From positions 2,199-66,198 of IMG/VR virus record IMGVR_UViG_3300032229_000798: DNA of 64,000 bases; one strand, written 5' to 3'. Shown one piece after another: positions 4,552 to 39,700 of this stretch (position 1 is its first letter; each line of letters starts with the position of its first letter). The DNA is from a virus. Its lineage: Duplodnaviria > Caudoviricetes. Made by a program: the position numbers and the translations under genes. The notes under the pieces are model-generated. The model was not told the DNA's origin. It worked only from the letters and a program-made list of their open reading frames with translations, and ran no database searches.

Positions 4552-5358
4552 TTAACCTTGGGCCTGCTCTTCATAAAGTAATTTACGGTCTTCCGTAAAA
4601 TAATATTCTTTCTTGGCAACATCCTGATAAAAGCGTTGTTCAAGAACTGGAAGAGCGGAATTAATGCTCGAAATGGAACCTTCCCTATTTACAGTATGGC
4701 GAATAATGAAATGTGGAATTACCATAATCTCTGCTTGTTGGTATAATAATCGGAGAAAAAATTCAAATTCAAAATATTTCTTGATACTGTGCTTAAAGCC
4801 GACATTTTTCACGAAAAGATCCGTATTGTAAACAGCGCCGACAAAAGAAGCTGTCATCAAATTTCTTAGGGATTCGAAATCGAAGTACCCTTGTTTTTCT
4901 GTGTAATTCAGATTCCAAACTGCCTCATTACACATACGGACAAAAGATTCACCGTCGAAATCAAGACTGATAGGTATGAATACTGAAACAGATGGATAAG
5001 AGATATTATACCTCTTCACTAGCTCTACATAATTCTCATTCAATACATCATCGTATTGTACAATGCTGAAAAGTTTTGTTTCGATGGAGTGGACGGCGAA
5101 ATTAACAATCTCCGTATAATTTGGCAGAGGGATATTTCGGATTTCCTCTGGGAGGTCAACGAAAGAGATGTTCAAATCATAAATGTTCATATTATTGATT
5201 TGTCCCTTCAAATCCTCAAAGGTGGCAACAAGGATGTTAAAATCATTGTCTTTTTGTTTGGAAAGAGACTCAAACATATTTGTGATATACTTTCGGTCTA
5301 TATCCAAAGCATGAATAGGTACTAATATAGTCAGAAATTCTGAATTTTTATTCTTCAT
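4552..5358 (-). CDS. glycosyltransferase, GT2/GT-A-like
   Basis: LTILVPIH N-terminal strand, QYDD (DxD-like), FEFEFFLRL. Confidence 0.7.
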   Translation of the reverse strand: MKNKNSEFLTILVPIHALDIDRKYITNMFESLSKQKDNDFNILVATFEDLKGQINNMNIYDLNISFVDLPEEIRNIPLPNYTEIVNFAVHSIETKLFSIVQYDDVLNENYVELVKRYNISYPSVSVFIPISLDFDGESFVRMCNEAVWNLNYTEKQGYFDFESLRNLMTASFVGAVYNTDLFVKNVGFKHSIKKYFEFEFFLRLLYQQAEIMVIPHFIIRHTVNREGSISSINSALPVLEQRFYQDVAKKEYYFTEDRKLLYEEQAQG

Positions 5359-6451
5359 CTTGATATTTTTTTATTGTGTTATCAATTTTTGAAATTTTAC
5401 TTTCAAATATTCCACTGAAAGCATTTTTTGTTTGGGTGACAAAATTATCTTCAGTGTAGAGGGTCGGAGTGGCCTGCATACTGTCATAGAGATTTTGTGG
5501 CACATCACCCAAAAGCCAAGCCTCCATAAACTTCGCAATGTAATCTGGTAGACCCAAAACATTTGAAACATAGATTGCATTATCCGCAAGGTTGGCACCC
5601 TGTTCGGTGAAAACCTCTGCCCATTCTGGAATAAGGTCTGGTATCTTCATTATACAAGGGACACCAGAAGCCATTGATTCCAACGGGAATGTTCCGAATG
5701 TAGCAAAATCATCAATCCAAACAGAAAGACAAGTTTCTTTAAGTGCCTCTGCAAAGTCTTCTTTTTTCATACCTCCAAGTGTCCTGAATGTAATCCATGA
5801 ATACATAGGATACTTTTGGTAGAACAATTTAACAGCTCTTTCAAGGTCATCTTGTGATCTTGAGATAATACTTATGATTGGTTTTTGGGGGAATGTGGAC
5901 GGCGAAAAATAAGAGGGGATTGCTGGGTTTACCACAAAAATGTTTTTTACAGGTTGGTATTCCTGCAAGAAAACTTTCATTTTATTAGACGTAGTAATCA
6001 CATTATCCACACCATAATAACTCCAGTTCTCCCCAGCATTCAAGTACTTGAAAATAAAAGAATGCGATTGACAAATAACGACCGTATCAGAAGGGAGCTT
6101 CGTTTCATGTAGTTTTTTGATTAGGTCAGAGAAAAGCTCTGGTACAAAGAAAGTATCAGCACCAGTGATTTTATACTCTGTGTTGTCATTCATCGCGGAA
6201 AGAGGTATATGTTTAAGAGACGAATATCTCTCACCCATCCAAGATTCAACCCCCACGAATTTGTCTTTTTCATGTACTATAATGACAGGATAACCTTCGT
6301 CCTGCATAAGCACCGCCATTTTATATATCTGTTCTACAGACGACATAGGCGCTCCAGCAGTATCGGAAACGAAAAAGAATAATCTACCTTTTTTGTTTTC
6401 GACCGCTGATTTAAGTTCTTCAAGTTTTTGTATTACTTCTTTATTGGTCAT
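5348..6451 (-). CDS. glycosyltransferase, GT4/GT-B-like
   Basis: TFGTFPLESMASGVPCI resembles the GT4 E-x7-E region. Confidence 0.7.
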   Translation of the reverse strand: MTNKEVIQKLEELKSAVENKKGRLFFFVSDTAGAPMSSVEQIYKMAVLMQDEGYPVIIVHEKDKFVGVESWMGERYSSLKHIPLSAMNDNTEYKITGADTFFVPELFSDLIKKLHETKLPSDTVVICQSHSFIFKYLNAGENWSYYGVDNVITTSNKMKVFLQEYQPVKNIFVVNPAIPSYFSPSTFPQKPIISIISRSQDDLERAVKLFYQKYPMYSWITFRTLGGMKKEDFAEALKETCLSVWIDDFATFGTFPLESMASGVPCIMKIPDLIPEWAEVFTEQGANLADNAIYVSNVLGLPDYIAKFMEAWLLGDVPQNLYDSMQATPTLYTEDNFVTQTKNAFSGIFESKISKIDNTIKKYQDEE

Positions 6452-7098: not shown

Positions 7099-8615
7099 GG
7101 CGTAATTAATATGAATTTTTTTAATGCGTTTCTGTATTTTTCAATCTTGGGGCCGAGGACGTTATTAAAATCAGCTTGCAGCCTTTCCAATTGTTTTGGG
7201 TCTTCATTTCTGGTGAGAGATTCATAATGATAACAAACCGCGTCCCCTTGATAGTAATTGATTTTATTTAAGACTGCAATGGATTCGATATTGAGTACGA
7301 CATCTTCAAAGCATTCGGTTGTCTGCTCATTAAACCCTTTCAGTTTTTCAAATTCTGTTTTCTTCATCAAGAGGAATGCCCCTGTGCTACCAACAAAAGT
7401 TCCAGTGAGTTTACTTTTACCAGAGTAGTAACTTTTCAAACCAAAATGTGTGACACCGACAATACCAGCTTTTTTTCCGTAAATAACGATACCCGCGTGT
7501 TGGACCCTGTTATTAGGATACAAAAGTCTGCAACCAACGGTACCACAATGTTTTCTATTCTTTTGGTATGTCGATACCATCAAGTCCAAAGCATTGTTTA
7601 TCAGTTCAATGTCGTTATTGCAGAACAACAAAAGTTCTTGGTCTGAAAAACAATCTTTTATAATATCGTTATTGTTCTTTGCGAAGTTATAATAAGGGAG
7701 TTTATATATCCTTAGTTTTACATTCTCTTTCGATACAGATGAGATGTATTCCCTTAACTCAATCAATGACTGTGAAGAGGAGCCTGTGTCACCTATAACA
7801 ATATCAAGATTTAAAATCGGATTTGTTTTTTCTATAAGGGAAGAGACACATTTTTTTACATAGTCTATTTTGTCTTTAGTAAGAATAACAACACCTATGT
7901 TAGTTGGTTTGAGGTCGACTTTTGGTTGGACGGCGAAATAGGATAAATCAGGTGTACATGATGCTGGCAGATTTTCCCCATATTCCTGCAAGAAAATTGC
8001 TCTGTTGTTATGCCAAGATTGAGTGATTGGGCCGACACTTTTATGATGGACTTTAAAAGCAGTTGTTACGCCAACCTTTACACCATTTAAAAAGTTCTCA
8101 AGGCTAAAGCTCACATCGTAAAAGTGAAATCCTGTTATCTTCTCGTTGAAACGTGCCTTTATCCTGTCTTTTTTCAATGCGATAAAAACGCCGTCCACCA
8201 CACAAACATTCATAACAAAATCATGGTCGTCGGAAAAGAAAGAATCATATTTGATAAGTTTCCCATTATCCATTTTTTCATGTGAAACAATTCCCGCAAG
8301 ATCACCCCTGTTTTCCCACCAAACCCCACTGTTGTTCATACTAGCTGAACCAGCCGCACCAATGATACCGTAGTCAGTTGTTTCAAAAATGTTTATAAGT
8401 TTTTCATCCCAACCATAGGGGAGGACAATATCATCATGTGCAAGAACCAATATTTCGCCGTCCAAACACATATCCAAAGCCTTATTATAACTTTCAGTCA
8501 AAGAATATTGTCCGTCATTAATAAATTCATGTATTCTTACATCAGTTTTACAAGATTTTTTAACCTTATTTTGATATTCTGATGCAGTACTTCGTGTAGA
8601 ATAAAAATAGAGCAT
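7095..8615 (-). CDS. two-domain GT2 glycosyltransferase
   Basis: Domain 1: LAHDDI, VDGVFIA, GFHFYDVSFSL. Domain 2: GDTGS, NFAKNNN, CNNDIE, QHAG, TGAFLL, FEDV, HYES. Confidence 0.85.
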   Translation of the reverse strand: MLYFYSTRSTASEYQNKVKKSCKTDVRIHEFINDGQYSLTESYNKALDMCLDGEILVLAHDDIVLPYGWDEKLINIFETTDYGIIGAAGSASMNNSGVWWENRGDLAGIVSHEKMDNGKLIKYDSFFSDDHDFVMNVCVVDGVFIALKKDRIKARFNEKITGFHFYDVSFSLENFLNGVKVGVTTAFKVHHKSVGPITQSWHNNRAIFLQEYGENLPASCTPDLSYFAVQPKVDLKPTNIGVVILTKDKIDYVKKCVSSLIEKTNPILNLDIVIGDTGSSSQSLIELREYISSVSKENVKLRIYKLPYYNFAKNNNDIIKDCFSDQELLLFCNNDIELINNALDLMVSTYQKNRKHCGTVGCRLLYPNNRVQHAGIVIYGKKAGIVGVTHFGLKSYYSGKSKLTGTFVGSTGAFLLMKKTEFEKLKGFNEQTTECFEDVVLNIESIAVLNKINYYQGDAVCYHYESLTRNEDPKQLERLQADFNNVLGPKIEKYRNALKKFILITP

Positions 8616-8945: not shown

Positions 8946-9530
8946 TTAGAAAAAGTTTTCAAAAGCGTCGAGTACAATGAGGTAAAAAATCAATAGAAAG
9001 ACTGATTCTTTATTCGGCCCGACTTTCTTGATGTTATATAAACTGTTATCAATCAACGCTTTTATCCTGACTGTTTGACTTTTTGTAGAAAACAATTCAA
9101 ACTCCCCAGAAATAAGGTCTGCGAAAAATTCTTTGAACGTATTTTCATATAATGTCAAAAGAAGTTCTTTGGGTGTTATTTTTCTTTCTTCTGCCACAAA
9201 GACTATCAAATGAAAAAGTAAAAGACCGAGAACATCTTTTTTCTCAACTTCAATATCTGTTTTTGTATATTCTGTAAAAATATTCAGTTTCTTGCCAGTG
9301 TAAAAAACAAGAAGGTTTTCGATTTTATTCAATCTATCATCTTGAGAAGCATACTCATACGCTACGCTATTGAAATATTCATAGATTTTATTGAATGTTT
9401 GTTCGATGTCGGGGTGGACGGCGAAATCAGGGGAGTTTGCTGCAAATTCATTCAGATTTTCAAAATACTCCTGCAAAAGAACAGGGTCTGAAATATTTGC
9501 GTTTTTCAAGATTTGATATTCGTAGTTCAT
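8946..9530 (-). CDS. hypothetical protein
   Basis: 194-aa ORF with a 4-nt overlap with the upstream gene. Confidence 0.65.
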   Translation of the reverse strand: MNYEYQILKNANISDPVLLQEYFENLNEFAANSPDFAVHPDIEQTFNKIYEYFNSVAYEYASQDDRLNKIENLLVFYTGKKLNIFTEYTKTDIEVEKKDVLGLLLFHLIVFVAEERKITPKELLLTLYENTFKEFFADLISGEFELFSTKSQTVRIKALIDNSLYNIKKVGPNKESVFLLIFYLIVLDAFENFF

Positions 9531-12398: not shown

Positions 12399-13529
12399 TT
12401 ATTGTAAAAGTTTTCTGTAAACTTCTGCGCGGATAATCGTACTATAATCCAAATTGAATTTGGCTGTAACATATTCATATAGGCTTTCACCCAAGTCCAA
12501 GCGCATTTGTGGGGAATCAATAAGTTGATTCACATATTTTACCCAAAGTTTATGTTCTTTTTTTGGTTCGACCACCAAACAATTTTTACCATGAACGCCG
12601 TCCAAATAAGGCGCAACACCGCTCACAATAATAGGCTTTTTCTTTGAACCAGCCTCAAGCATCTTCAAATTACTTTTACAAGTATTGAACTCGAAACTTT
12701 GAAGTGGTGCAAGACAAACATCAAGTGGGTCGTACAGGTGCATATATGTATGAATAGATTTTGTCCACACCCGTTGATATTCCATATCGTTTTGGAAAGG
12801 ATAAGGAATCTTGTCTTCAAATTCATAAAGATACTCAATAAACTTCTTGTCCCTAAGATTATGATTATCTGTAAACTCCAATTCCATTTTAAGCCATGTA
12901 GAATTTGGACCAGTCTCTTTGGTTACGTTAAAACCACAGAGTTGCATTTGGACGGCTTTTTTGGAAACAGAGGTAAGGGTTCCACGAAGGAGTTTAATAT
13001 CCTCAAGGTGTGACACACCCGCTACATATCCGACATTGACTTTTTCATGCTCATGTTTGATTATCTCAAACTGCTTTTCTTTTACATTAACGGAGTTGGG
13101 AACAACGTAAACATTTTGGTTGAGCTTCCTGATTTTATCTGCGAAGTAATCAGTCGTAGTAATTACCATATCAGCCTTCCTGACACCCTTAACTGTCTTC
13201 TCCTTTAACTTAATCTGTTTTGCCAAGTGAAAGTATGGATGGCTTGGATGGTAGTCCCAGAAGTCATCTATATCCAAAATAAGTTTTACACCGAGGGTTT
13301 TGAGAAATTCGGTTTGGACGGCGATTTGGTCTGCCTGTTCAAGTGAGGCGTGATAAAATAGTGCATCGAATGATTTTACCTTTGCAGTATTAAGAATATC
13401 AACATCATTTCCAAATTCGATATAATAATCTTTGGGAAAAAGATTCTGGAGATGAACGTGTGGATCAATAAGGCGATATTTGTTAATACCTGAATCAATG
13501 TCCCGTACAGGGATTACTAAAATTCTCAT
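12399..13529 (-). CDS. glycosyltransferase, GT4/GT-B-like
   Basis: DIDDFW, ADMVITTT, VVPNSV, LAPL...FNTCKSNLKMLEAG. Confidence 0.85.
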   Translation of the reverse strand: MRILVIPVRDIDSGINKYRLIDPHVHLQNLFPKDYYIEFGNDVDILNTAKVKSFDALFYHASLEQADQIAVQTEFLKTLGVKLILDIDDFWDYHPSHPYFHLAKQIKLKEKTVKGVRKADMVITTTDYFADKIRKLNQNVYVVPNSVNVKEKQFEIIKHEHEKVNVGYVAGVSHLEDIKLLRGTLTSVSKKAVQMQLCGFNVTKETGPNSTWLKMELEFTDNHNLRDKKFIEYLYEFEDKIPYPFQNDMEYQRVWTKSIHTYMHLYDPLDVCLAPLQSFEFNTCKSNLKMLEAGSKKKPIIVSGVAPYLDGVHGKNCLVVEPKKEHKLWVKYVNQLIDSPQMRLDLGESLYEYVTAKFNLDYSTIIRAEVYRKLLQ

Positions 13530-14970: not shown

Positions 14971-15355
14971 TTTCTGTTAATTTTTTAAATGTGTTTTCTG
15001 TTATCTTTACCCTTGTTGGGTTTTTGTTAGTGTCTTTTCCGTGTGCTTTCAAATATTGATTGCCCAATCCAGCAGCAGTCTTAAACGCTTTATCTTTTTC
15101 AACACGCTTTCTAAGCATATTCAATTGGCCGTCCACCCACCTATAAAATAAATCCCCCCCGTGCATAAGTTTTTCGCCGTCCAACATCGAAGGATAATTC
15201 TTTTTAAAGTTCTTCAGGTCATCGTATTCCAAATATCCACGCTCAATAAAGTTCTTCAATTGCTGTGAAAATTGCCCTTTGGAAACCTCCCGAAGACGTG
15301 GTAAAAGTGCCTTTGGGAATACAACTTTTACCCCTATTAGATTACTGTTAGCCAT
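14954..15355 (-). CDS. hypothetical protein
   Basis: 133-aa ORF directly downstream of the 64-bp repeat. Confidence 0.6.
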   Translation of the reverse strand: MANSNLIGVKVVFPKALLPRLREVSKGQFSQQLKNFIERGYLEYDDLKNFKKNYPSMLDGEKLMHGGDLFYRWVDGQLNMLRKRVEKDKAFKTAAGLGNQYLKAHGKDTNKNPTRVKITENTFKKLTENGILH

Positions 15356-15960: not shown

Positions 15961-17604
15961 TTGGCATATATAAACAGCAATTATCATAAGCAACTGGATA
16001 TTAAGTTGTCCAGCATAGATTATTACGATTTGACCTTGTCAGATTATGATTTACTCTGTGGTTGTAACACTCCAGTATTACCCATTGTCTGCATAAATTT
16101 CACTGGAACTACTTTTAACTACGGTGATGAAGTATGGAGTGGGAGTGTTAATGGGTTGGACGGCGAAATAACAGATTTTGGTATAACTGGTTATGATAAC
16201 AGGAGGGTAGCTACATTGGAGTCTGCTTTAGGGGGGTTGGACGGCGATTTTCGGTTCATATTAAAAGCAGTTAGCGGAGATACTTTTGATTACACAATCC
16301 AAAGCGGAAGTCCAATACAATTATGTGGGGGATTTTATCAAGGATTTTATAAACTCGAAGGTCTTGAATATCAAACACTTCCAGACTTTTATAAGGACGG
16401 ATGGACAATAGAACTTTATTTGTCAAGCGGTGGATGCACTGCTTCGGGCAATACATTAAACAATCAATACCCCAATAACAGCGGTATTTTTTATTACTAT
16501 GGTACAAGAGCGGAAAATAAATTCTGTTCATTAAAAGAACATTTACTTGGATATGAGGTAGCAAGCGGTGTTACATTTTTGGATGAATCAATACCCTTGA
16601 CATCTCACATCACACCCCCAGAAGGAGAAAGCTCCTTTTTGTTTTTTAATAGTTCGGGTCTCACCGATTTCTACGAAAACGCAACTGGTGTTACATTTGA
16701 ATTGCCGAACTGTTGTGACGGCTTAAAATACAATGCACTGGCTTTCAGATTAAAAGACAATGGAACAATCGGGTATAGATACCTTGGCACTTCTGGAACT
16801 TGTGTGGATGGCAAATTTGAAGAAGGTTTTCAAGTCTTTGAAAGATACACCACAGAAGCCGTAATAAAAGATGCCAATTACCATTTGGTAAGCATAACAT
16901 TCAGAAGCAACGAACACCACACCTGCAAACCAAATAAACAAACATTTGGTATGTTGAGTATATATGTGGATGGATTTTTGAAAATCAGGGATTACAATTT
17001 CCCAAATATCATCCCATACGCCTTCGATGATCTACCAACGAAAGAATATGGAGTGCCGTATAATATCAGTATCGGCGGTGGAACACAAGGGCTTTTGGAA
17101 ATGCAACAAGACCCTCCTGTAACATACAACGTCTGCGATTATAGTTTCTTTATAGACCAATCACAAGGTATAAGCGGTGTCAGATATGATGGAGTAGATT
17201 ATTATACCCCAACAACATACGGTTTCAATGATGAATTATTGATATTGGATTTCTTGAAATCTGTAATCCCCGAAACAATTGTGTCATTTAGTTACACAAA
17301 AACAGATTTTTATTTGGAATTTAATATGAGATTTGTTGAGGGCGACTTCGAACAAGTCTTTTATGAATTAGTTTTGGATGTAGGTAAGATTCACAATGTT
17401 TGTTCTCCAAACCTGCCACAATATTCACAAGCATACCCCAACAAACAAAATTGTTTTTCTTTCACTACCGACAACAATACTTGTGGGATTTTAGAAGAAA
17501 ATTTTGCTGGTAGCTTTATCGGTAAAATTTCCAAATTCTGTTTGTATGACAAGCCATTAGACATAGAAACAATTCGCTGTAATAATAACATCTATCAAAA
17601 TTAA
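15961..17604 (+). CDS. putative virion structural protein (Cys-rich, LamG/concanavalin-like elements)
   Basis: YHLVSITF...LSIYVDG...ISIGGG...FIGKISKFCLYDKPL resemble LamG; TTG start. Confidence 0.55.
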   Translation: MAYINSNYHKQLDIKLSSIDYYDLTLSDYDLLCGCNTPVLPIVCINFTGTTFNYGDEVWSGSVNGLDGEITDFGITGYDNRRVATLESALGGLDGDFRFILKAVSGDTFDYTIQSGSPIQLCGGFYQGFYKLEGLEYQTLPDFYKDGWTIELYLSSGGCTASGNTLNNQYPNNSGIFYYYGTRAENKFCSLKEHLLGYEVASGVTFLDESIPLTSHITPPEGESSFLFFNSSGLTDFYENATGVTFELPNCCDGLKYNALAFRLKDNGTIGYRYLGTSGTCVDGKFEEGFQVFERYTTEAVIKDANYHLVSITFRSNEHHTCKPNKQTFGMLSIYVDGFLKIRDYNFPNIIPYAFDDLPTKEYGVPYNISIGGGTQGLLEMQQDPPVTYNVCDYSFFIDQSQGISGVRYDGVDYYTPTTYGFNDELLILDFLKSVIPETIVSFSYTKTDFYLEFNMRFVEGDFEQVFYELVLDVGKIHNVCSPNLPQYSQAYPNKQNCFSFTTDNNTCGILEENFAGSFIGKISKFCLYDKPLDIETIRCNNNIYQN

Positions 17605-23586: not shown

Positions 23587-23919
23587 TTATTTTTCGCCGT
23601 CCAACTCAAAAGTCTCTGGATTCCTGCCTTCCTTATTGGCAGTAGCATAATAAACTGCTTTGCCTCTCTTTTCTCCATATTGTTTTTTCATGCTTGCCAT
23701 AACTTCTTTGTTATATTCATTCAAAGGATATTGCAATGCTTTTTTTGCCATGTGTGCAAGGTAAATCACATCTTCAAACTTATTTTCTTTCATCGCGAGA
23801 TAAATCTTTTCTTTAATAATGTCCAATTCCACTGGATTCATTTCTTTCTTGCCAAAATTCCCCATATTTTCTTGTATTTCATTATAAAGCATTTCACTAA
23901 TTTTTATCTTCTTGTTCAT
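23587..23919 (-). CDS. hypothetical protein with ISE leader
   Basis: 110 aa; C-terminal MKKQYGEKRGKAVYYATANK; TATTTAT motif upstream. Confidence 0.6.
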   Translation of the reverse strand: MNKKIKISEMLYNEIQENMGNFGKKEMNPVELDIIKEKIYLAMKENKFEDVIYLAHMAKKALQYPLNEYNKEVMASMKKQYGEKRGKAVYYATANKEGRNPETFELDGEK

Positions 23920-27132: not shown

Positions 27133-29526
27133 TTAAGACCCACAGGCTTCACATCCTTCAGGATTATCCAAACTGCAAGATATTCCCTCTTCTGAAGTAT
27201 ATTCTTTTATCGCAGTTGGTTTTTGCACACTGCTAAGGTCTATACCAAGACCTGCAATAGCTTCAACAGCAGCCTTAGTTCTTAAATAATACATCCCTGT
27301 TTTCAAACCTTTTTTCCAACCATGAAAATGTGCGGCTGTAAGTTTTGCGGAATTTACACCTTCGATAAACAAATTCATTGATTGTGATTGGTCAACAAAA
27401 GCACCTCTATCTGCTGCCATATCTAATAAATCTCTTTGTCTAAGTTCCCAAACAGTCAAATACAATTGTTTCAAATCTGCTGGTATTTCCATTATACTTT
27501 GAACAGAACCTTTTGCTGCAATCAAATTTAATCTCATTTTTTCATTCCATAACCCGCGTTCTTGCAAGTCTTGAACCAAATGCTTATTAACTACGGTATA
27601 TTCTCCAGATAAAGTCCTTCTCTTATATAAGTTACTTGTAAATGGTTCAAATGCTTCATTATTGCCTAATATCTGTGCAGTAGAAGCAGTTGGCATAGGA
27701 GCTACCAAAAGAGAATTTCTGACCCCGTGTACAGATATATCTTTTCTAAGTGAATCCCAATCCCACCTTTCAGAAGGTGTTTCTCCCCACATATCAAATT
27801 GCAGTATTCCTTGTGACATAGGTGATCCTTCATAAGAAGAATAAATACCTTCAACTTTAGCAATATCACAAGATGCTTTTAATGCAGCATAATAGATTGT
27901 TTCAAAAATTTCTCTATTAAGTTTTTTTGCTTCTTGTGAAGTAAATGGCAGTCCCAACATGGCAAAAGCATCTGCCAACCCTTGTATTCCTATTCCAATT
28001 GGCCTATGTCTAAGATTAGAAGTTTTTGCTTCCTTTACTGGATAGTAATTCACATCTATCACACGATTAAGATTTTTTGTAACTTGATAAGTTACTTCAT
28101 ATAATTTCTCATGGTTAAATGTTTTTTTACTTTTTTCGTTCCTTTTTGCTCCATTATTTTCCAAATATTTTGGAAGCGCAATAGATGCCAGATTACATAC
28201 TGCAATTTCATCTGCACTTGTATATTCCATTATTTCAGTACACAAATTGCTGCCATGCAAAACACCAAGGTTCTTTTGATTATTCTTTCTATTTGCATGG
28301 TCTTTGTATAACATATAAGGGGTGCCTGTCTCTATTTGTGATTCTATAATCTTTTCCCAAAGTTCACGTGCCCTTATTTTCCTTCGACCTCTTCCTTCTT
28401 TCTCATAAGTCTCGTAAAGTGCTTCAAACTTTTCTCCATAATTGTTATGCAATTCAGGTGCTTCATCTGGTGAAAAAAGCGTCCAATCTCTGTCCTCTTC
28501 TACTCTTTTCATAAACAAGTCAGGAACCCACAACGCGAGAAAAAGGTCTCTTGCTCTTAATTCTTCTTTACCATGATTTTTGCGCAAATCTATAAAGTCA
28601 AATATATCAGAGTGCCAAGGCTCCACGTAGACTGCTATGGAACCTTTTCTCTTTCCTCCGCCTTGATCCACATATCTTGCAGTCTCATTGAATACTTTCA
28701 ACATAGGAATTATTCCATTTGAAGTACCATTTGTACCTTTTATATATGCGCCTTTTCCTCGTATGTGATGTGCATGGACTCCAATACCACCAGCATTTTT
28801 AGAAATCATTGCACAATCTGATAATGTTTTGTATATTCCTTCTAAAGAATCATCCATTATATTGAGGAGAAAGCAAGATGAAAGCTGTGGTTTTTTTGTT
28901 CCAGCATTATACAATGTCGGAGTAGCGTGCGTAAAAAATCCTTGAGAAAGAAGATTATATGTTTTAATCGTTTCTTCTATGTTTCCTTGCCATATTCCAC
29001 AGGCTACTCTCATCCACAAGTGTTGAGGCCGCTCCACGACTTTAGAATCAATCTTTAACAGGTAAGATTTCTCTAAAGTTTTGAAACCAAAAAAATCAAA
29101 ATTAAAATCTCTATCGTAATTTATCGCTTCTTCTAATTTTTCTTTATTCTCCTCTATGAAAGAAAAAACCTTATCGTCTATAAGAGATGCAGATTTTTGT
29201 GTCCGTTTATCAAAATATTCGTGAAGATCCTTCATCGTTTCATAAAAAGATTTCTTAGTGCTTTTATGTAACGAAGTAATAGCAATTCTGCTTGCAAGAG
29301 TAGAATAATCTGGGTGATAAGAAGTCATAGATGCAGCGGTTTCTGCTGCCAAAGCATCAAGCTCTACACTTGTAACTCCATCATAAACTCCTTGTATTAC
29401 TTTTTTTGCTATCTCTAAAGCATCTACATAGTCAGTATTTAAACCATAAGTTTGTTTCTTTATTCTCATGGTTATCTTATCGTACTTAACTGGTTCTTTT
29501 GAGCCGTTTCTTTTTTGTACTTGCAT
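27133..29526 (-). CDS. nrdA: ribonucleotide reductase class Ia alpha subunit
   Basis: N-terminal ATP cone (VQKRNG), [28 protein letters not shown]-terminal CEACGS. Confidence 0.98.
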
Positions 29527-29546
29527 ATTTTGTTATTTTTTTTAAG

Positions 29547-30554
29547 TTAAAAATCTGTATCTAATGTGAAAGAATCAAAAGAATTTGAGTTTCCATTTTT
29601 TACACCAGCTTTTTGGTATTCACCTACTCTTTTTTCAAAGAAATTGGTTTTTCCTTCCAATGCAATGTTTTCCATAAAGTCAAATGGATTTTTAGCGAAA
29701 TATTCCTTTTCGTACCCAAGAGAAACTAATAATCTATCCGTTACAAATTCAAGATATTGTTTCATCATATCAGCATTCATACCAATAAGACGGACAGGTA
29801 GAGCCTCTGTTATGAAATCTTTTTCTATCTCTAATGCAGAACCAAGGATTTCTACAATCTTTTCCCTTGAGAGTTTATTCTCTATATGGTTTCTGTAAAG
29901 AAGACAGGCGAAATCTGTATGCAAGCCCTCGTCGCGAGATATAAGTTCATTGGAAAAAGAAAGCCCAGGCATTAAACCTCTTTTTTTAAGCCAGAATATA
30001 GAACAGAAAGAACCCGAAAAGAAAATACCCTCTACAGCAGCAAAAGCTATAAGCCTTTCCACAAAATTTGGACTGTTTATCCATTTAAGTGCCCACTCCG
30101 CTTTCAATTTAACTGCTGGGACTGTTTCTATTGCATTAAAAAGATAATCTTTCTCTTTTTCATCCGTTATATAAGTATCAATAAGGAGAGAGTAGACTTC
30201 AGAGTGAATATTCTCTATCATAATTTGAAATCCATAAAAACACCTTGCTTCAGCATATTGGATTTCTTGTAGAAAATTAACACCCAAGTTTTCATTAACT
30301 ATTCCATCAGATGCTGCAAAAAAAGCCAGCACGTGTTTGATATAGTGTTTTTCATCTTCAGTTAACTTTTCTCTCCAATCTGTGAGGTCTTGAGCAAGGT
30401 CTATTTCTTCAGCAGTCCAAAATGCAGCTTCATGTGTTTTATATGCTTGCCAAATATCATTATGTTTTATAGGAAATAAAACAAATCTGTTTGGGTCTTC
30501 TTGAAGAATTTTTTCGTTAAAATTTTGATTATTCAAAGTATTTTTGTTTGTCAT
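29547..30554 (-). CDS. nrdB: ribonucleotide reductase class Ia beta subunit
   Basis: [42 protein letters not shown]. Confidence 0.98.
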
Positions 30555-30629
30555 TTTTTAAAAAATTTAATGCGTGAATTTATTTTTTATTGTGTCATTT
30601 TAGATATTATAAATAACCCGAAAACAAAA

Positions 30630-32015
30630 TTATTGCTTTGGGTTCTTTTCATAAGCAGAAGTTACATTGTGGTCTTCGACCTTAATCTTTACCCTGCTAT
30701 TATCAAATTTGACATCATCGAATTTTACACGTCCAGAACCGAGGCGATTTTTCCAAATATTGATATTTGCTTTTCCACTCAATATCTGCTCCTCATCCTT
30801 TCCAATCGTCATCATAACGTGTGTTATTTTTTGAAGGTCTCCAGAACCAGAAAGCATACTTGGTTCAAGATCGCGGATACCGTGTGTACCCTTTTTACCT
30901 TGGAGTAATACCCAAGCAGCGCAATTGAAATTCGTCTCTGAAATAGCGTCTTCAATCTTTCTTAAAACTTCTGGTCCAGCAAGATAATCTTTGTCACCGT
31001 AATCGTTCTTGTCACCCTTGATACATTCAAGATAATCAATAATGATTAAATCCAATTTATACCCTTGCACCTTTTCGACGTGAAACAACGCTTGCTCGAT
31101 ATTAGACCAGTGTGTGTCGATTGCATCGAACTTTTTCACAATAAATTTGCCACCAACTTCTTCACCTTTACGCAAAATACTCTTGCAGTGGGTTTCAATG
31201 ATATGTTTGTTTTTAACATTCATTGATTCATCAATTGAAAATCCACTCCAGTTGGCTTGCAATTTTGAGAAAAGGTCGTTTTGTGTTCCCTCAAAGAACA
31301 CATAAAAAACTGTTTTACCCTCAAGAAATGCTGTGGTAGCGATGACAGCAGAAAAGGTTGTCTTACCTACACCTGTACCAGCACCAACTAAAATAAGGTC
31401 TCCACGTGAAGGCCCACCCTTGATAGCATCGTCAAAAGACTTTCCAAGCCCTGTCGGTATCGGAATGCGGGTTGTATCATCAACCAACTTAAAAGTCTCG
31501 CTACTGATAAGCAATGGCTTTTTGGAGGTATCATTAATCTCGATTGCCTTTCTTACTTTTTCTACCGCAGAATCACCGTCTTTAATTTTTCCTTTTTTCC
31601 ATTCGTTTTTAACACTCTCAACAATATGGATAAAATTCTGTTGCTGAATGAAGTTCCTCGCATTATCTTTTACGTGGTCTGCATTCTCTATTACAACGTG
31701 TTCAATATCGTTGAGGAACTGAAAAAACACTTCTCTGTCTGTACCATACTTGGCAGAATATATTTCCCTGATGGTGTCATAAAAGGGGATACTACGATAT
31801 TCCACGTAGTATCCCTTGATAATCTCAAGAAGTGTTTTTGAAAATGGAAGGGAAAAGTGTTTCGGATTTAGAATGCCTATCATAGAGACACCATATTCAA
31901 CGTCCCTATATAGTTCTTTCCCCTTCAACAAACGCCGTCCAATCAACTGGTTAAAAAACTTGATTTCAAATTTTTCACCAAATACCCCCAAATCTAATGT
32001 CTCATTCAAATCCAT
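30630..32015 (-). CDS. DnaB/T4 gp41-like replicative helicase
   Basis: IPTG, AGTGVGKT (Walker A), FFE, IIIDYLE, KNRLG. Confidence 0.88.
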   Translation of the reverse strand: MDLNETLDLGVFGEKFEIKFFNQLIGRRLLKGKELYRDVEYGVSMIGILNPKHFSLPFSKTLLEIIKGYYVEYRSIPFYDTIREIYSAKYGTDREVFFQFLNDIEHVVIENADHVKDNARNFIQQQNFIHIVESVKNEWKKGKIKDGDSAVEKVRKAIEINDTSKKPLLISSETFKLVDDTTRIPIPTGLGKSFDDAIKGGPSRGDLILVGAGTGVGKTTFSAVIATTAFLEGKTVFYVFFEGTQNDLFSKLQANWSGFSIDESMNVKNKHIIETHCKSILRKGEEVGGKFIVKKFDAIDTHWSNIEQALFHVEKVQGYKLDLIIIDYLECIKGDKNDYGDKDYLAGPEVLRKIEDAISETNFNCAAWVLLQGKKGTHGIRDLEPSMLSGSGDLQKITHVMMTIGKDEEQILSGKANINIWKNRLGSGRVKFDDVKFDNSRVKIKVEDHNVTSAYEKNPKQ

Positions 32016-32035: not shown

Positions 32036-32590
32036 TTAACGATAAAGTTCTTTACTATTAACAGAAAAAGTATTTACAGGTTGGAAACGCTTTTTGAACC
32101 TGTTATAGTACTTGTTCATAGAAAGCGTTTCTTTGAGTGTCGTCCGAATACCTGCATTGATTTCATTGTCTTTCCATATAGGGATGATGGAGAGGTTTTG
32201 GACGGCGAAAAAATCGTTGGCGTAGATTTCGTGCTCATACAATACACGGACTTCTTTGTTCTGGGAAATTGCACCATTTTCCCGAACAGCAGCCTCATGG
32301 TCTACAAGTTTGAAAATGTAACGGGAATTTGGGTCTTGCTTGGGAATCGGCTCGTCAGAATGCTTGTAAAGCATATCCTCCGTGATTCGACGCATATAGT
32401 CTTGAAAAATGTCGGTAATCTTACCAAAACATTCGACTATCTGTGTAGAATTTTCAACTGCCAAGTCTTCATTACCAAATTCTTTAAGAGGGGTAAAAAA
32501 GTTAAGATTGGTTAATTCTTGGGCCGTCCTTCCGTTGTGATAAATCACATGGAAGGTAAACCTTGCCTTAAAATCTTTTTGTTCAGTCAT
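32036..32590 (-). CDS. hypothetical protein
   Basis: 184-aa ORF within the replication operon. Confidence 0.65.
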   Translation of the reverse strand: MTEQKDFKARFTFHVIYHNGRTAQELTNLNFFTPLKEFGNEDLAVENSTQIVECFGKITDIFQDYMRRITEDMLYKHSDEPIPKQDPNSRYIFKLVDHEAAVRENGAISQNKEVRVLYEHEIYANDFFAVQNLSIIPIWKDNEINAGIRTTLKETLSMNKYYNRFKKRFQPVNTFSVNSKELYR

Positions 32591-33602
32591 TTTTTTTAAT
32601 TTTGTTTGTTAATAAAAAAGGTGAAGTGAAATTTCTAACATCCCCATCAAAATCAAGGTCTGTTCTTATTTGTTTGTAGATTTCTGTGCCTTTTAATTTA
32701 GCATAAAACTCTTTCAAATCCACGGGCAAAGATATGATGTTTTTTATTTCTTCAATACAATCTGGTGAAATAAATTTTTTATTATTCAAATTAATCAAAG
32801 TCTCCGCCAAATTATATCTCTCATCATCTTCCAAGAAATCTACCAAAATCTGAAGCCTCTTGCCTTTTTTTCCTTTGGATTGTTGTTCAAGACAATATTC
32901 CAAAAGGCTCCCCCTTTCATACGGACGTTTTATAAACATCGGGATTTCATTCAAGATAGATTTTTCAGAAAATCCTTTGGCACCATAGATGTTATCTGAT
33001 TCATCTCCGATAATAACCTTTCTCAAAAGAATGTTCTTGTGGGTCTGCTCGAAATAATATTCAAAGTTTTCACTGTTAATAAGCAGATTCTTTGGGTAGA
33101 TGTGGTCTTTAACCTGTATCCTGTTGAGATAGTAGATAAAAACATTTTTGTCAATCAACTGAAAATAATCATTGTCATTCGACAGTATCAATATATTTTC
33201 CTTGTCTTTATTCTGCCTTACATATTCAGCAATACAATCATCCGCTTCGACAAAAGGATGCTCATAAGAATTGATTCCCAACATTTTCATAATGGAAATT
33301 ATCATATCTTTCTGCTGATAATACGGGTCAATTCCATTAAAAAATCTGTTTCTCTTTTCTTTGTACGGTTCATAAATCTCCTTTCTCAATTTACCGCTTT
33401 CTGGGCCATCCCAAAAGAGAATGGTTTTATAAATCTGGTAAGTATGATTGTTTACATTCTCATTCAACAATCCCCTTAACTTCTTCATAAATCCCCAAAC
33501 GGCATGGATATTATGCTTGTGGAGGGCGTAGGATTTTACGCCCTCGAAGCATATTTTATAGAGATTCATTGCATCAACAATTAATACTGCCCTATTCTTC
33601 AT
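32583..33602 (-). CDS. 5'-3' exonuclease / flap endonuclease (T4 RNase H-like)
   Basis: LIVDA, FWDG...R...YEPYKEKR, EADDCIA, SNDNDYFQL, GDESDNIYG. Confidence 0.9.
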   Translation of the reverse strand: MKNRAVLIVDAMNLYKICFEGVKSYALHKHNIHAVWGFMKKLRGLLNENVNNHTYQIYKTILFWDGPESGKLRKEIYEPYKEKRNRFFNGIDPYYQQKDMIISIMKMLGINSYEHPFVEADDCIAEYVRQNKDKENILILSNDNDYFQLIDKNVFIYYLNRIQVKDHIYPKNLLINSENFEYYFEQTHKNILLRKVIIGDESDNIYGAKGFSEKSILNEIPMFIKRPYERGSLLEYCLEQQSKGKKGKRLQILVDFLEDDERYNLAETLINLNNKKFISPDCIEEIKNIISLPVDLKEFYAKLKGTEIYKQIRTDLDFDGDVRNFTSPFLLTNKIKKND

Positions 33603-34674
33603 TCGTCACAATTTCTTCAAATTCAACATTTTCAATATCAACGACATCAATTTCTCTGGTTATATTTGCAAAATATTCAATTATACCATCTTTATTATCT
33701 TTCTTATATTGTTCGAAAACAGATTTATCGGTAGCTGAAATAAAGCCATGTGGGGTAATGATAAGTTCACCTTCAGTGGAAATACCAGTAAAGTGGTTTT
33801 TTGTTACCCTGATTTTGGTTACTTTAGCAAGATCAATCGTCTTTCCATTGACTTTAAACGGCAACTTCTTCACAGCAGCTTCCAACATACCACCAAAATG
33901 AAGTTTGACAGCCATATCATACACAAAAGCCAAACCACCAGTCTCTTTAGGGTTTACACTATTGCTGCCAGCGTGAAGCCTCATAATTGAAACAAAGGTG
34001 ATATTGATTGGATATTCTTTGTACCTCGTCCTCGTAACAAGTGGTTCAATATAATTGCTAAAATTGTTCTTGTGTACTTTTGCGTTGTGCATCGGAAGGT
34101 CCATTTTATCTTCCTTGATTTTATCCATAGCTGGAGCACATTTGAGTTTATTCTGACTATCAACAAAAACACAAATGTCTTGCGGGAATTTCGTATCTAT
34201 TTTAGATGCAGGTACCAAGACATCTGCGATGATGTAGTCATACATCTCTTCAAGATTTTCAAAACCGTCTCTGAAAAGGAAATTACCTTTATCCCATACC
34301 TTAACAAGTTCACCAGTGTCTTCATCTACTACTTCTCGGTAATCACAATCCATACCCATGAATTTCGCGTGTTCAAAAGAAAATTTACCTTCAGTTGAGA
34401 CAATAATTGGATAGATGTTATTCTTTTGACATTCGATAATAGAATGCAAAAGTAAAGTGGTTTTTCCTGTATCAGAATAACCTGTAATAGAAGAACAGTT
34501 ATTTACTGGAAATCCTTTAAAACCTACTGCATCTGCCACACATGGTGGGAAATTAATATAACTAAGTGGTTTTTGTTTTCTTGATTGATTTGCAGGTGAT
34601 TTTTTATAAGACGTCCAAAAGTCCATTTTGTCATCAACATCGTTTGATGTTGGTTTATTAGTTTTTTTTGCCAT
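33592..34674 (-). CDS. RecA/UvsX-like recombinase
   Basis: GYSDTGKTT Walker A, STEGKF, VFVDS, TGG, KIRVTKNH. Confidence 0.8.
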   Translation of the reverse strand: MAKKTNKPTSNDVDDKMDFWTSYKKSPANQSRKQKPLSYINFPPCVADAVGFKGFPVNNCSSITGYSDTGKTTLLLHSIIECQKNNIYPIIVSTEGKFSFEHAKFMGMDCDYREVVDEDTGELVKVWDKGNFLFRDGFENLEEMYDYIIADVLVPASKIDTKFPQDICVFVDSQNKLKCAPAMDKIKEDKMDLPMHNAKVHKNNFSNYIEPLVTRTRYKEYPINITFVSIMRLHAGSNSVNPKETGGLAFVYDMAVKLHFGGMLEAAVKKLPFKVNGKTIDLAKVTKIRVTKNHFTGISTEGELIITPHGFISATDKSVFEQYKKDNKDGIIEYFANITREIDVVDIENVEFEEIVTNEE

Positions 34675-35849: not shown

Positions 35850-36527
35850 TTAGAAACTATTTTTTACGTAGTTTTCATCGTAGCCTTTCATTACATCAGA
35901 AGATTTTAAAATATACTCCTCTGGCGCCTTTTCGACATCTGGGAGATTTTTTACATCGACCCTGAAAGTAGGGTCATCGTGCATATTCGTTTTTGCGTTA
36001 GCTACCATGTACTTATACTTGTCCTCCTGTGTCGGTTGCCAATAGTCAGTCAACTTGACATTGTAGGGGAAGCTGTGCAAGGATTGTAATTGCAATTTCT
36101 CTGTCGGTGTAGGAACGCGCATTTCCAATTCTCGTTTGACACGTTGTGCAGTTTCAGCAGATTTATTTTCCAAATCCTCGAATTTTTGGTTCAACTCTGA
36201 TTTAAAGGATTCATTTCCTTTCAGTAGTTCACCTATCTTTCCAAGAACGTCTTGTACTGTTTTATTTATTTCGTCTTGTTTTAGTACTAATTGGGTTACG
36301 TCGAGTTGGACGGCGTTATCTGAAACTTCTGCGGGTTGGGTACCAGTAGCATCAGCTGGGGCTGCATCCTGTGGGGCATTTGTGTCCTGTGGAACATCGC
36401 CTCCCTGTTGCTGTGCAGCGGCTGCTTGTGCAACATCTCCCAAACCAAAGGCATCATCAATCTCGTCTTCGTTCAATGGCCTTCTGCCGTAGTATTTGTA
36501 ATTGGTTATAAAATCAAAGTTATTCAT
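35850..36527 (-). CDS. hypothetical protein (LNE leader, acidic low-complexity region, coiled coil)
   Basis: 225-aa ORF. Confidence 0.7.
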   Translation of the reverse strand: MNNFDFITNYKYYGRRPLNEDEIDDAFGLGDVAQAAAAQQQGGDVPQDTNAPQDAAPADATGTQPAEVSDNAVQLDVTQLVLKQDEINKTVQDVLGKIGELLKGNESFKSELNQKFEDLENKSAETAQRVKRELEMRVPTPTEKLQLQSLHSFPYNVKLTDYWQPTQEDKYKYMVANAKTNMHDDPTFRVDVKNLPDVEKAPEEYILKSSDVMKGYDENYVKNSF

Positions 36528-36544
36528 CTTATCTGTTTTTAGGG

Positions 36545-36718: not shown

Positions 36719-36753
36719 TTTTAAAAATTGTTTTTTAAATAAATATTCAACTT

Positions 36754-39700
36754 TTATCTTTTCGATGCAATGTTTATGGCTGTCGGCATAAATTGGTATG
36801 CCATGACAGGTATGAAGTTGGCCGCTGGTTTCATATTCGAGATTTTATTGTTACTATGGAAATTATAAAAAATACCATTATAAAAAATACCAATATGTGT
36901 TATAATAGAAAAAGGATATTCGTTTGTTTTTGGTTTTAGATTGTCTGGAACCCGTCTGTTTATTGTCAATTGGTTTATTCTTGCTCGATTATTACTATTT
37001 TTAATAACTTCAAAAGATTCATCAATATATTTAGACCCAATTGTTAAACCAAAAAGAAAAGAACCATTTTTAAGCCCTGCATCTATAAGATCCTGATTAC
37101 TCCAATTAGTTAATTTTTGATTTGGAGAGAAATATTGAACATTACCATTTTCTGGTAATCCAACAGCCCATTCCCAAGCATCTCCTAAAATATTTTGGTT
37201 TTTATATATACCGAGTTCTGAAAGTGCAAGTTTAACCCATTTTGCACAGTTTGCACCAACGACACCGTAACTATTAAAATTGTTTGGATTAAATACAGAT
37301 GCTAAGTTACTACTAAACGTAGCTGAATTAATATTACTGCCCAATAAATACGAAGCAACTTTTCCATCTGAACCGACGACTCTAAAGACTTCGTTGGGGT
37401 TATTTACAGCAGTTGTTCCGATATTCAAGCCTCCAGATAAGATAGCATCTGCTTCTGCGGTAGTAAACCCGACATTTATAAGACCATCTCTACTATAATA
37501 TTCACTATCTTTTCCATCAACGATTATGCTGTAATCTTGAGCTGCTGTAACATCTGTCTGCAATTTATCATTCACTCCGATATTAAAGTAACTGGTAATC
37601 TTGTCAACAAGTGGGTACACAAATTTTGAAATTCGCCGTCCACCAAACTCCGTGACCATATCATGTGGAGTAATAGTGTGCTTAACATTAGTAATCATGT
37701 GTGCACCATGAAACAAAGGTATGTTATCCAACTGAAAATACATGGTCGGAAAAATCTGTGTATTTCCCATACATTCTACATCGGTTCTGTAACTTCTCAC
37801 AGCATAGGCATTATAAAGGTCTGCACCCATATAAATCCTTTTTGTGCCGCCCTTGCCTCCAGCCAATTGATCCTGAATAGTCATGCTTTCAGCAGTCTCC
37901 CTGTGGTCTTCCTGTGTAACATTTACCTTTTTAAAAATGCTTTGATTTTGGTCGGCATAAGAGACCCTGAAGATGCAGAGATTAAACTTGTCAAGATATT
38001 CTTTCGAGTATGGTGTAACACTGTTTACATAATAAGAAGGGACATTTTTTTGATTAAATCCAGGTGGCACAAACGTCTTGCTTCTTGCATTAAAATCAAA
38101 ACCGTCGTTTAAGTAATAAGCACTTTCTGCATTAAGGTCAAGTACTTTGCTGTTACCCGCAACATACTGGAAAATCATACATGAACCACCTTCGGTATTT
38201 TCGACGTTGGTGTAGGGTCTAAAGATATTAGACACCTCATTTTTATTTCCAAATTGAACGAAAGCTGGGATATTATAGAAGTTGAAATTGTTATCTTTTA
38301 TTATCCTCGAAATGAAAAAATAAATATTCCCATCTATCTGACCCGAATACGTCAAAAGTGGTGTGGGATTAAGAACAACCTTATCTCCAATATCAGACCA
38401 AGTCCTGTCAATAAAATAACAATGCTCAATTAATTTTGTGGGCCGATTACCTTTCCTTAGATACCTTGAGAAGTTATAAACCTTACCATCGCTCGTATTA
38501 TACGAAAGCCATTTATCGTAAATGTTTTTTAAGTGTTTGTAAATGACAATTTTTAAGTTCTTGTCAACCACCAAATTGTTTTCCTCTGCATTCTGTTCGG
38601 TATTTGCGTTGGGTGTAGCATTTTGTTTTGGGGGCAATAGATAAACAAAAGTCTCTGCAAATGTTTTAGCGTAAGCAGTAACCCTGTTGGTATCTGTCAT
38701 ATATACCATCTGGTTATCAGAAGGTACAGAGGGTATTATGACTTTGTTGACTCTCTTGAATAATTGTAATAATAAATCTTTTGCTTGGTTAAAATCATTT
38801 TTCGTAACAAATGAACTTTTACCATAATATAAATAAAAACCAACATATATATGAAAAAGAGAATTAGAAACTTCTATAACAAATTCTTTAAAAACATTTA
38901 GAAAATAATTGTTGTTGTCTTCGAAGGGTTGAAAAGGTTTAAATATGTTTTCATTTGCAATCAAAGAAAAATTTGGGTTATTTTTTATATCCTTTGTTAA
39001 AAAATCTGGATTGGTTTTTTGGTAAGATATTCCACCCAAATATGCAGCATAAAGATATGGTATATTCGATAGATTTGCAGAAGTTCTGTTTTTTAAGTTA
39101 GTATAATAAGTTGCATCTTTAAAACCAATAGAATATAAAAACATGAAAGTCAGCGCTTCGTTATTATTTTCACTATAATAAAATTGACGCCAAAGATCAG
39201 CACCTTTGTTATAGTTCGTAAAACTTAATCCCATGCCACTAAACAATGTCACATCATCCAAAAAAGTAATTAACGGTTCTGTCGTATCCAAAGTCCTGCT
39301 ACCGACCAATGTATTATATCTTAACAAAAGATGCTGGTAGATAGTCGGATTTGTGAAACAATCAGAATAATCGAGTATATTCAAAGCGATAGGTTCACTT
39401 ATAAAGAAGTTTTCATTTTTTAACCCTTCTGATAATACAGTAGATATATTTTTCCTGATTCTATTCGTTAGAACGTCTGTTATATTGGCAGCAAAAGTCT
39501 TTGGTGCAAAGCCTTTAAGACTTGTTTCAAGACTGTTTAAATCAGATAAAGGTATTTCATATAACGGATTTAGATTGGTTGTAGCAGTGGATGTATTATA
39601 TGATTGGTAATAATTTGTAAGATCACCTCTAACCTTTAGTCTTATGTTATCTACGTTGTTTTGGGCGTATTGGACGGCGGAATTTACAAAATCCGTTATG

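Follow-up and report, generated by a model that had tools for sequence, protein, structure and literature searches.

Why does one short GC-rich word recur throughout the genes of an AT-rich phage, and what reads it? The question is raised by a 64,000-nt stretch of viral DNA (hereafter the window), which corresponds to bases 2199–66198 of a single 66,198-bp virus record (IMG/VR IMGVR_UViG_3300032229_000798; 35.2% GC). There are 48 copies of its core, GGACGGCG, in the window and 50 in the whole contig (30 on the (+) strand and 20 on the (−) strand), and TGGACGGC ranks first among the 8-mers of the contig. The original prediction, made from the letters of the window, had described this motif between 5090 and 37642; we found every coordinate and peptide that it cited, but copies also lie outside that span, throughout the window and the contig.

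Allowing up to one mismatch, TGGACGGCGA was found 53 times, compared with a mean of 0.82 in 100 shuffles (largest count, 4). When synonymous codons were redrawn with all proteins and the codon usage kept, 2.0 copies were predicted versus the 50 seen (z = 42), and the same null applied to a 23-kb piece of a relative predicted 0.1 versus 11 seen. We also ran the codon-usage check that had been suggested for the dipeptides DG, AV, and PS. Specifically, GAC-GGC accounted for 29 of 92 DG pairs (3.97 expected), GCC-GTC for 17 of 85 AV pairs (2.07 expected), and CCG-TCC for 14 of 61 PS pairs (0.94 expected), i.e., codon-pair excesses of 7- to 15-fold. The recognition word carries about 25 bits of information, and its one-mismatch variants are scarce both in the lineage with 35% GC (69 exact 10-mers versus 12 variants at positions 1–9) and in a sister lineage with 30% GC (38 versus 7), the two lineages having an identical consensus. 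Since one-mismatch variants are nearly absent, recognition is sharp. Apparent "loose ends" of the contig at 44631, 54166, 61251, 62835, and 63775 resembled recombination junctions and were dropped; one foreign sequence turns up at both 54166 and 61251, so that distinct motif copies have probably been matched to each other.

Nearly all copies lie within genes: 49 of the 50 contig copies are inside open reading frames (ORFs), in line with the 96% coding density. The frames in which they are read in the contig are as follows:

xDGx, motif on the gene's strand: 21 copies
AV, motif on the opposite strand: 14 copies
PS, motif on the opposite strand: 12 copies
GRR, motif on the gene's strand: 2 copies
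Frames needing Trp-Thr-Ala or Arg-Arg-Pro: 0 copies

The copies in the window are listed below by the window coordinates of the core, with the strand, the peptide in the frame reading across the core, the frame class, and the gene.

1513..1520, (−): SVLDGEEN, xDGx, ORF 389-1609
2371..2378, (+): opposite strand TVSPSDKG, PS, ORF 2020-3333
3697..3704, (−): ASLDGVLE, xDGx, ORF 3323-3730
5091..5098, (+): VNFAVHSI, AV, ORF 4552-5358
5897..5904, (+): YFSPSTFP, PS, ORF 5348-6451
7928..7935, (+): SYFAVQPK, AV, GT2 gene 7095-8615
8189..8196, (−): CVVDGVFI, xDGx, GT2 gene
8456..8463, (−): MCLDGEIL, xDGx, GT2 gene
9416..9423, (+): PDFAVHPD, AV, ORF 8946-9530
12596..12603, (−): PYLDGVHG, xDGx, glycosyltransferase-like ORF 12399-13529; common to the 30% GC lineage
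13316..13323, (+): DQIAVQTE, AV; orthologue AIGRQT
15175..15182, (−): SMLDGEKL, xDGx, ORF 14954-15355
16158..16165, (+): NGLDGEIT, xDGx, ORF 15961-17604
16239..16246, (+): GGLDGDFR, xDGx
19440..19447, (+): VFLDGEKF, xDGx, PolB gene 18781-22884; orthologue FLDPSK
20559..20566, (+): VYVDGGKI, xDGx, PolB
20591..20598, (−): ENSPSTFY, PS, PolB; orthologue NSTAPF
22440..22447, (+): KCMDGDLI, xDGx, PolB; common to the 30% GC lineage
23595..23602, (−): FELDGEK-stop, C-terminus of ORF 23587-23919
23990..23997, (+): QYVDGEMQ, xDGx, ORF 23955-24458
26421..26428, (+): YQNAVQKV, AV, ORF 26086-26781
31933..31940, (−): LIGRRLLK, GRR, DnaB-like helicase gene; common to the 30% GC lineage
32200..32207, (+): DFFAVQNL, AV, ORF 32036-32590
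36308..36315, (+): SDNAVQLD, AV, ORF 35850-36527
37634..37641, (−): FGGRRISK, GRR, ORF 36754-41724
39672..39679, (+): VNSAVQYA, AV
41133..41140, (−): ATLDGETG, xDGx
41344..41351, (+): MFTPSTVE, PS
41931..41938, (+): YKSAVQRY, AV, ORF 41887-42195
44634..44641, (+): VFSPSTDF, PS, ORF 42195-45761
45509..45516, (+): QQFAVQSV, AV
48361..48368, (−): TSVDGETD, xDGx, ORF 48167-48895; common to the 30% GC lineage
48595..48602, (−): IEVDGESY, xDGx; some 30% GC relatives have it, others lack it
48961..48968, (−): the sole intergenic copy
49259..49266, (+): FIAPSTSQ, PS, ORF 49001-49492
51848..51855, (−): ALVDGVGS, xDGx, tail sheath gene; orthologues have VDGV via other codons
54106..54113, (+): NNSPSTLP, PS, ORF 54004-55083
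54168..54175, (+): TNFAVQFD, AV
54295..54302, (+): PLSPSTPE, PS
56372..56379, (+): VKSPSNPH, PS, ORF 56117-57505; 18/18 nt the same in the 30% GC lineage
56740..56747, (−): ARVDGENV, xDGx; common to the 30% GC lineage
57116..57123, (+): SKSPSNWY, PS; 18/18 nt the same in the 30% GC lineage
60748..60755, (+): DLVDGEKL, xDGx, primase-helicase gene
61258..61265, (+): KDLDGEKY, xDGx; common to the 30% GC lineage
62243..62250, (−): KNPPSNFI, PS, UvrD-like helicase gene; common to the 30% GC lineage
62838..62845, (−): MPNAVQLP, AV
62901..62908, (−): KANAVHNI, AV
63760..63767, (−): YELDGEEM, xDGx, ORF 63581-63940

Four frames are used in the contig and six of six across 164 unique copies from the clade (74, 44, 34, 7, 3, and 2), with the frames needing Trp or Arg-Arg nearly unused; relative to transcription, 23 contig copies run with the gene and 26 against it. 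A conserved peptide motif, e.g., a DG turn that happens to share codons, could account for the lead of xDGx among the frame classes (21 of the 49 genic copies here and 74 of the 164 clade copies). However, over half of the copies use a different frame or the opposite strand, only 2.0 copies are expected when the proteins are held fixed, and orthologues retain VDGV using other codons; we therefore regard this explanation as excluded. The constraint acts on the DNA and not on the peptide, because there are many frames, both orientations, an excess over the protein-preserving null, and gains in orthologues that are both synonymous and amino acid changing. On this point the original prediction, which deduced DNA-level selection from at least four codon frames, was borne out, and the orthologue alignment that it suggested shows some copies that arose along with residue changes. 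In short, the word has entered the coding sequence through substitutions, synonymous and non-synonymous alike, wherever the protein permits. It had further been proposed that a biased process keeps fixing the motif wherever the protein tolerates it; the frame usage fits the tolerance, while bias in the sense of drive and ordinary selection are indistinguishable here.

The anatomy of the element was derived from the 164 unique clade copies, among which the core is invariant because it was the search word. The full element is ~35 nt long and strand-asymmetric, and it consists of a G/T-rich 5′ flank (~18–24 nt), K-K-T, the core GGACGGCG, and A-W-W, with an informative stretch of at least 11 nt. 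Outside the core, the logo reads as follows:

Position −3: G, 70%
Position −2: G or T
Position −1: T, 98%
Position +8: A, 73%
Position +9: A or T, never G or C
Position +10: mostly A or T

The G/T fraction of the motif strand from about −24 to −1 is 0.57–0.70 versus 0.50, and the bias is gone by about −24. In each frame class, the third codon positions of the 5′ flank are ~80–95% G/T whichever strand codes; since the bias occupies third codon positions of either coding strand, it is a property of the DNA.

The copies on a given strand are more evenly spaced than random, with coefficients of variation (CVs) of 0.69, 0.77, 0.73, and 0.70 (P = 0.017, 0.143, 0.022, and 0.030, respectively) for four strand sets that come from two records and have some orthologous copies in common, and the mean same-strand gaps are 2.2–4.7 kb. 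When both strands were pooled, the spacing did not differ from random (CV 0.90 and 0.87), and neither did runs in strand order. Position along genes was uniform (Kolmogorov-Smirnov [KS] p = 0.48). Some sites had been thought to fall in variable protein tails, and the FELDGEK copy does lie at a C-terminus; copies are, however, not concentrated in tails, and conserved genes are denser in them. Specifically, density is 0.97 per kb in the 25 genes that are well matched by a sister-lineage orthologue versus 0.28 per kb in the 22 with a weak orthologue or none. The longest motif-free stretch, 26429-31932, contains the ribonucleotide reductase (RNR) genes, which are only ~25–27% identical to the RNR of the sister lineage versus 64–66% identical, for the large subunit, to those of many Bacteroidota; these identities suggest that the RNR genes were replaced by a gene from elsewhere.

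We aligned the genic copies with the sister lineage (30–31% GC, ~68% DNA identity, typically 50–70% protein identity) and could place 33 of the 49, a further 9 falling in gaps or uncovered parts and 7 having no orthologous locus in hand. Exactly shared copies number 12 of the 33, some with 18 of 18 surrounding bases identical (KSPSNW, KSPSNP, and NPPSNF). Among the 21 unshared copies, 3 differ only synonymously in the core, such as the sheath VDGV in other codons, and the other 18 show amino acid differences in a six-residue window, e.g., FLDGEK versus FLDPSK and NSPSTF versus NSTAPF in the family-B DNA polymerase (PolB). Copies have been gained or lost among members of the sister lineage too. 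Because more distant relatives are essentially without copies, the copies are gains within the clade. Comparison with a 3.4%-divergent strain is suggestive only, with 5 differences in 405 motif positions (counted both ways) and 3 of 24 distinct copies differing.

How far does the motif extend? Clade relatives whose primase-helicase (see below) is 56–99% identical carry it at 0.4–1.5 copies per kb. In L342, a 20.4-kb metagenome contig with 38% primase-helicase identity, TGGACGGC occurs 16 times, with the next (ninth) base being G in 9, A in 4, T in 2, and C in 1; the motif has a relaxed dialect here. Beyond these, a single copy was found in 911,710 bp (74 loci, sheath relatives at 36–44% identity), and 12 of 13 loci with primase-helicase homologues at 27–39% identity had no copy, L328 having one (loci L323–L330, L338–L341, L343, and L344, L336 being the same stretch as L330). 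Other words tried as dialects were rejected: CTGAAGAA and TCAAAAGA in distant primase-helicase-bearing phages occupy several frames, but their z values of 6–7 under the codon-preserving null equal those of negative controls, and GGACAGGC in L340 has just four copies. A run of 17 copies of GGAGCACC in L333 (16700–20300), at multiples of 63 nt on one strand, is a tandem coding repeat unrelated to the motif.

None of the 401 Bacteroidota genomes sampled was enriched, each having 15 or fewer copies of the 11-mer, a result that holds for the genomes searched. In the top five genomes by copy number, the 9-mer occurred ~62–203 times versus 18–100 for a reversed control, i.e., ~0.02–0.06 per kb and an excess of 1.4- to 3.4-fold. 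A 14-mer scan of genome contigs returned only single background matches among the matches listed. The word is a hallmark of one narrow clade, whose members are large freshwater myophages.

The record is a fragment, since contig L082 matches its first 1169 bases at 99.3% and then runs on beyond its left end with 13 further motif copies. From the CheckV completeness of 21% for the record and 41% for a 136-kb relative, the complete genome is probably ~330 kb, the window being about one fifth of a large AT-rich myophage. The record encodes a contractile tail sheath, PolB, a DnaB-like helicase, a class I RNR, and a double GT2 glycosyltransferase, as well as a UvsX/RecA-like recombinase, a FEN-type 5′-3′ exonuclease, a UvrD-like helicase, and a metallophosphoesterase. 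Three loci bear on what follows:

27133..30554, (−): RNR genes, inside the longest motif-free stretch
33592..34674, (−): UvsX/RecA-like recombinase (Pfam RecA, E = 9.7e-8; PHROG UvsX-like, E = 3.7e-10), the candidate reader if the motif serves recombination
57536..61744, (+): putative 1402-aa primase-helicase (Pfam PF08800, E = 6.9e-9), a candidate reader

Near-identical DNA was present in contigs from 20 public runs of 10 studies, labelled mostly freshwater or aquatic, and a blastn search of reference phages with one 5-kb gene gave no match. The host probably belongs to Bacteroidota, because a Shine-Dalgarno-like sequence precedes only 1 of 63 called genes, TTACCTTTGC recurs upstream of genes, and the RNR resembles that of Bacteroidota, although the RNR similarity (64–66% to many genomes) singled out no particular host. 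Specifically, TTACCTTTGC recurs 20–30 nt before the start codons of the ORFs starting at −113, 12327, 18781, and 26030 (window coordinates), and we take it to fit a Bacteroidota-type −7 promoter; ATATTTATA-like words precede several structural genes, and the two are probably two promoter classes.

Several features stand apart from the motif. The window has two glycosyltransferase genes, the double GT2 gene at 7095-8615 and a PHROG glycosyltransferase at 12399-13529; ORF 389-1609 had no Pfam match, and its earlier label as a spike could not be confirmed; a search for tRNA found none. The divergent spacer 23919-23955, between ORFs 23587-23919 and 23955-24458, contains the near-palindromic, AT-rich TTATATTTATCATATAAATATAA. 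At 55088-56051, 962 bp (two small ORFs) are swapped for 359 other letters in contigs of two other runs (X4 and X9), which looks like a variable cassette.

What, then, might read the word? The facts call for a reader that is clade-specific, that discriminates strands locally without global polarity, that is served by even sites on each strand, and that does not tolerate mismatches. The reading we favor, albeit tentatively, is that the phage's AEP-type primase-helicase uses the motif as a cryptic start site. The N-terminal part of the 1402-aa protein matches BT4734-like_N (PF08800), which we take, from the Pfam description, to be a domain of the AEP primase family, and the protein carries DExH helicase motifs with invariant GKTT, DEQH, TGT, and QxxNRxR columns. 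The best matches of its fold model are AEP primases at middling Z scores of 5–7.4, and a helix-bundle-like second part of the model aligns with the helix bundles (template-binding ones in RepB′ and the pRN1 primase) of RepB′, the pRN1 primase, the NrS-1 primase-polymerase, and the African swine fever virus PrimPol. PDB sequences and PHROGs gave no match to this protein, and neither a DnaG-type zinc ribbon nor Toprim_2 was found in ~273 kb of clade records.

Under this proposal, the replication apparatus of the phage itself would read the element in single-stranded DNA, the most likely reader being the protein encoded at 57536-61744. The GC-rich core would be a cryptic recognition site, itself uncopied, and the primer would begin opposite the near-invariant T just 5′ of the core and extend over the G/T-rich flank, giving an A/C-rich primer. 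If recombination-dependent replication sends forks in either direction, each strand would need its own fairly even set of sites; newly acquired genes would come without sites and gain them slowly. Two known enzymes offer precedents: the pRN1 AEP primase-helicase requires a cryptic GTG and starts its primer immediately 5′ of it (PMC2034472), and the T7 primase recognizes 5′-GTC with a cryptic C, prefers the template 5′-GGGTC, and makes pppACCC (PMC11109968). The T at −1 and the G/T-rich flank occupy the place where a primer of the pRN1 or T7 kind would be templated, which is compatibility and not proof; the same holds for the fixed base beside the word, the use of both strands, and the 2.2–4.7 kb same-strand gaps, which are compatible with primase sites on the Okazaki scale. 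In its strongest form, which we consider possible but doubtful, the proposal amounts to a private genome-wide start code: an AEP primase-helicase demanding an 8–10 nt GC-rich cryptic word almost absent from host DNA, with hundreds of copies evenly spaced on each strand and written through the phage's genes, altering codons and amino acids even in polymerase and structural genes, would confine replication to self DNA through sequence only, with no need for base modification.

A number of observations weigh against priming. To our knowledge, primase sites are trinucleotides, and a cryptic site of 8–10 nt would have no precedent. The primase-helicase family extends beyond the motif, with homologues of ~27–39% identity in genomes that do not carry it; structural similarity of the fold model is middling (Z below 8), and comparing the protein with the sequences of solved structures gave nothing. 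Position −4 is not G/T-biased, i.e., the template is not strictly G/T. Only ~20–40% of any clade genome is in hand, and another reader could be encoded elsewhere.

Finally, the even same-strand spacing and the G/T-rich flank suit a Chi-like site equally well. At such a site a helicase-nuclease, be it host AddAB/RecBCD or a phage enzyme, would recognize the core on the 3′-ended strand, halt degradation, and load recombinase on the G/T-rich DNA 5′ of the site, thereby shielding phage DNA ends and feeding recombination-dependent replication. A Chi-activated enzyme leaves a 3′ tail on the 5′ side of the site, and the G/T-rich flank of this asymmetric element, present on both strands, lies on the side of that tail. 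The phage has suitable partners in its UvsX/RecA-like recombinase, FEN-type exonuclease, UvrD-like helicase, and metallophosphoesterase. RecA is described as preferring TGG-type, Chi-resembling repeats (PMC3763553), and host Chi can be in excess in the genomes of concatemer-packaging phages (PMC3784561). That over-representation, however, amounts to an observed/expected ratio of ~2–5 at ~0.2 sites per kb (PMC3784561), versus 25 given the proteins and 0.5–1 per kb here, and the informative stretch of at least 11 nt exceeds the Chi octamer. Moreover, the flank bias stops after ~24 nt, no PDDEXK_1 (RecB-type) nuclease was found in the incomplete clade records searched, and the 9-mer reaches only ~0.02–0.06 per kb even in the top five Bacteroidota genomes; taken together, we consider a Chi-like role unlikely. 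The high information content, the sharp recognition, the relaxed ninth position in L342 (which suggests a reader evolving with the clade), and the absence of the word from the distant relatives and host-phylum genomes searched would also suit another phage-encoded DNA-binding protein, unconnected with priming or Chi, for which the word would mark phage DNA uniquely, either as a self-DNA tag (for compaction, sorting, or nuclease protection) or as a recombinase-loading site. A duplex tag should not need evenness on each strand, yet copies are even per strand and not when pooled, and no candidate sequence-specific DNA-binding protein was identified, many ORFs of the window having no family match; this alternative seems distinctly unlikely. 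Readings beyond those considered here, taken as a group, are in our estimate quite unlikely.

The word might also have no function and be a by-product of biased mutation or repair, e.g., short-patch repair or templated conversion to one word. One-mismatch variants are scarce, as though near-cognates had been converted to perfect sites, copies build up with residence time, and the G/T flank could be a mutational footprint. Blind bias would not be expected to space same-strand copies evenly, however; many copies needed several changes, including amino acid replacements in PolB and neighboring structural genes, and 12 of 33 persist across lineages ~68% identical in DNA, which makes this explanation improbable. 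The original prediction had likened the motif to uptake sequences, which are known to accumulate inside genes, and the likeness stands for the pattern: about one copy per kb, both orientations, preferred in-gene frames, and lineage dialects all match (PMC2817400, PMC3630211). As a mechanism, i.e., the DNA uptake sequence of a competent host accumulated via uptake bias, it is poorly supported and, in our view, very improbable. The motif is carried by a large tailed phage that has replication genes of its own, each of the 401 sampled Bacteroidota genomes holds no more than 15 copies of the 11-mer, the Bacteroidota-like RNR genes lie in the longest motif-free stretch, and spacing is even on each strand but not when pooled.

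Short signals that override codons genome-wide are known from bacterial chromosomes, namely uptake sequences, Chi, and orienting words; the phenomenon described here resembles them but sits in a phage clade. A literature search by motif strings and topic returned no description of such a signal private to a phage clade, the motif strings themselves yielded only primers and constructs, and a keyword search of a paper on large aquatic Bacteroidota phages found no mention of a DNA motif. A word of ~25 bits has remodeled the coding sequence of this large phage, and a dedicated reader should therefore exist. Its identification would bring to light a primase of unprecedented specificity or else a self-recognition system that belongs to the phage, and the word is already usable as a binning marker for fragments of this uncultured phage group.

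How does the element compare with known systems? The uptake sequences (DUS/USS) of Neisseriaceae and Pasteurellaceae lie mostly in genes, in the least costly frames, and are richer in long-resident DNA, much as the phage motif is. Like it, they are short asymmetric words with flank preferences that occur at ~1 per kb in either orientation (PMC2817400, PMC3630211). An uptake sequence also saturates the chromosome of its competent host, whose cells preferentially take up DNA that bears it. Unlike uptake sequences, the phage motif is carried by a phage clade and not by a competent bacterium, shows no enrichment in 401 genomes of the inferred host phylum, is nearly without one-mismatch variants, and is evenly spaced only per strand. 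Chi is a word of 5–8 nt that RecBCD/AddAB recognize and that is in moderate, replication-oriented excess in the host chromosome. Like the phage element, it is strand-specific, read on single-stranded DNA, and tied to G/T-rich sequence (PMC3763553), and it is over-represented in some recombination-dependent phages (PMC3784561). The phage element is longer, has an observed/expected ratio of at least 25 versus 2–5, and reaches 0.5–1 versus 0.2 copies per kb (PMC3784561). It is also private to the clade as far as searched, and a RecB-type nuclease was not seen in the clade records.

RepB′ of RSF1010 uses ssi sites. The sites of the pRN1 ORF904 primase (5′-GTG) and of T7 gp4 (5′-GTC) resemble the proposed start site in being cryptic words on a single-stranded template with the primer just 5′ or within (PMC2034472, PMC11109968), and the T7 enzyme further prefers a template that is G-rich 5′ of the word and makes a primer of A and C (PMC11109968). 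The phage protein has a predicted arrangement (AEP core, helix bundle, and helicase) that is similar. In contrast, the known sites are chance trinucleotides, whereas here an 8–10 nt GC-rich word has been written into an AT-rich genome by substitution. We know of no primase that has reshaped the coding sequence of a genome in this way. Another counterpart is HIP1 of cyanobacteria, a GC-rich palindromic octamer of unsettled function that occurs chromosome-wide at ~1 per kb in many frames; the phage word shares the GC-rich octamer, the frequency, and the variety of frames, but HIP1 is palindromic and resides in cell chromosomes, whereas the phage word is asymmetric and is seen only in a phage clade.

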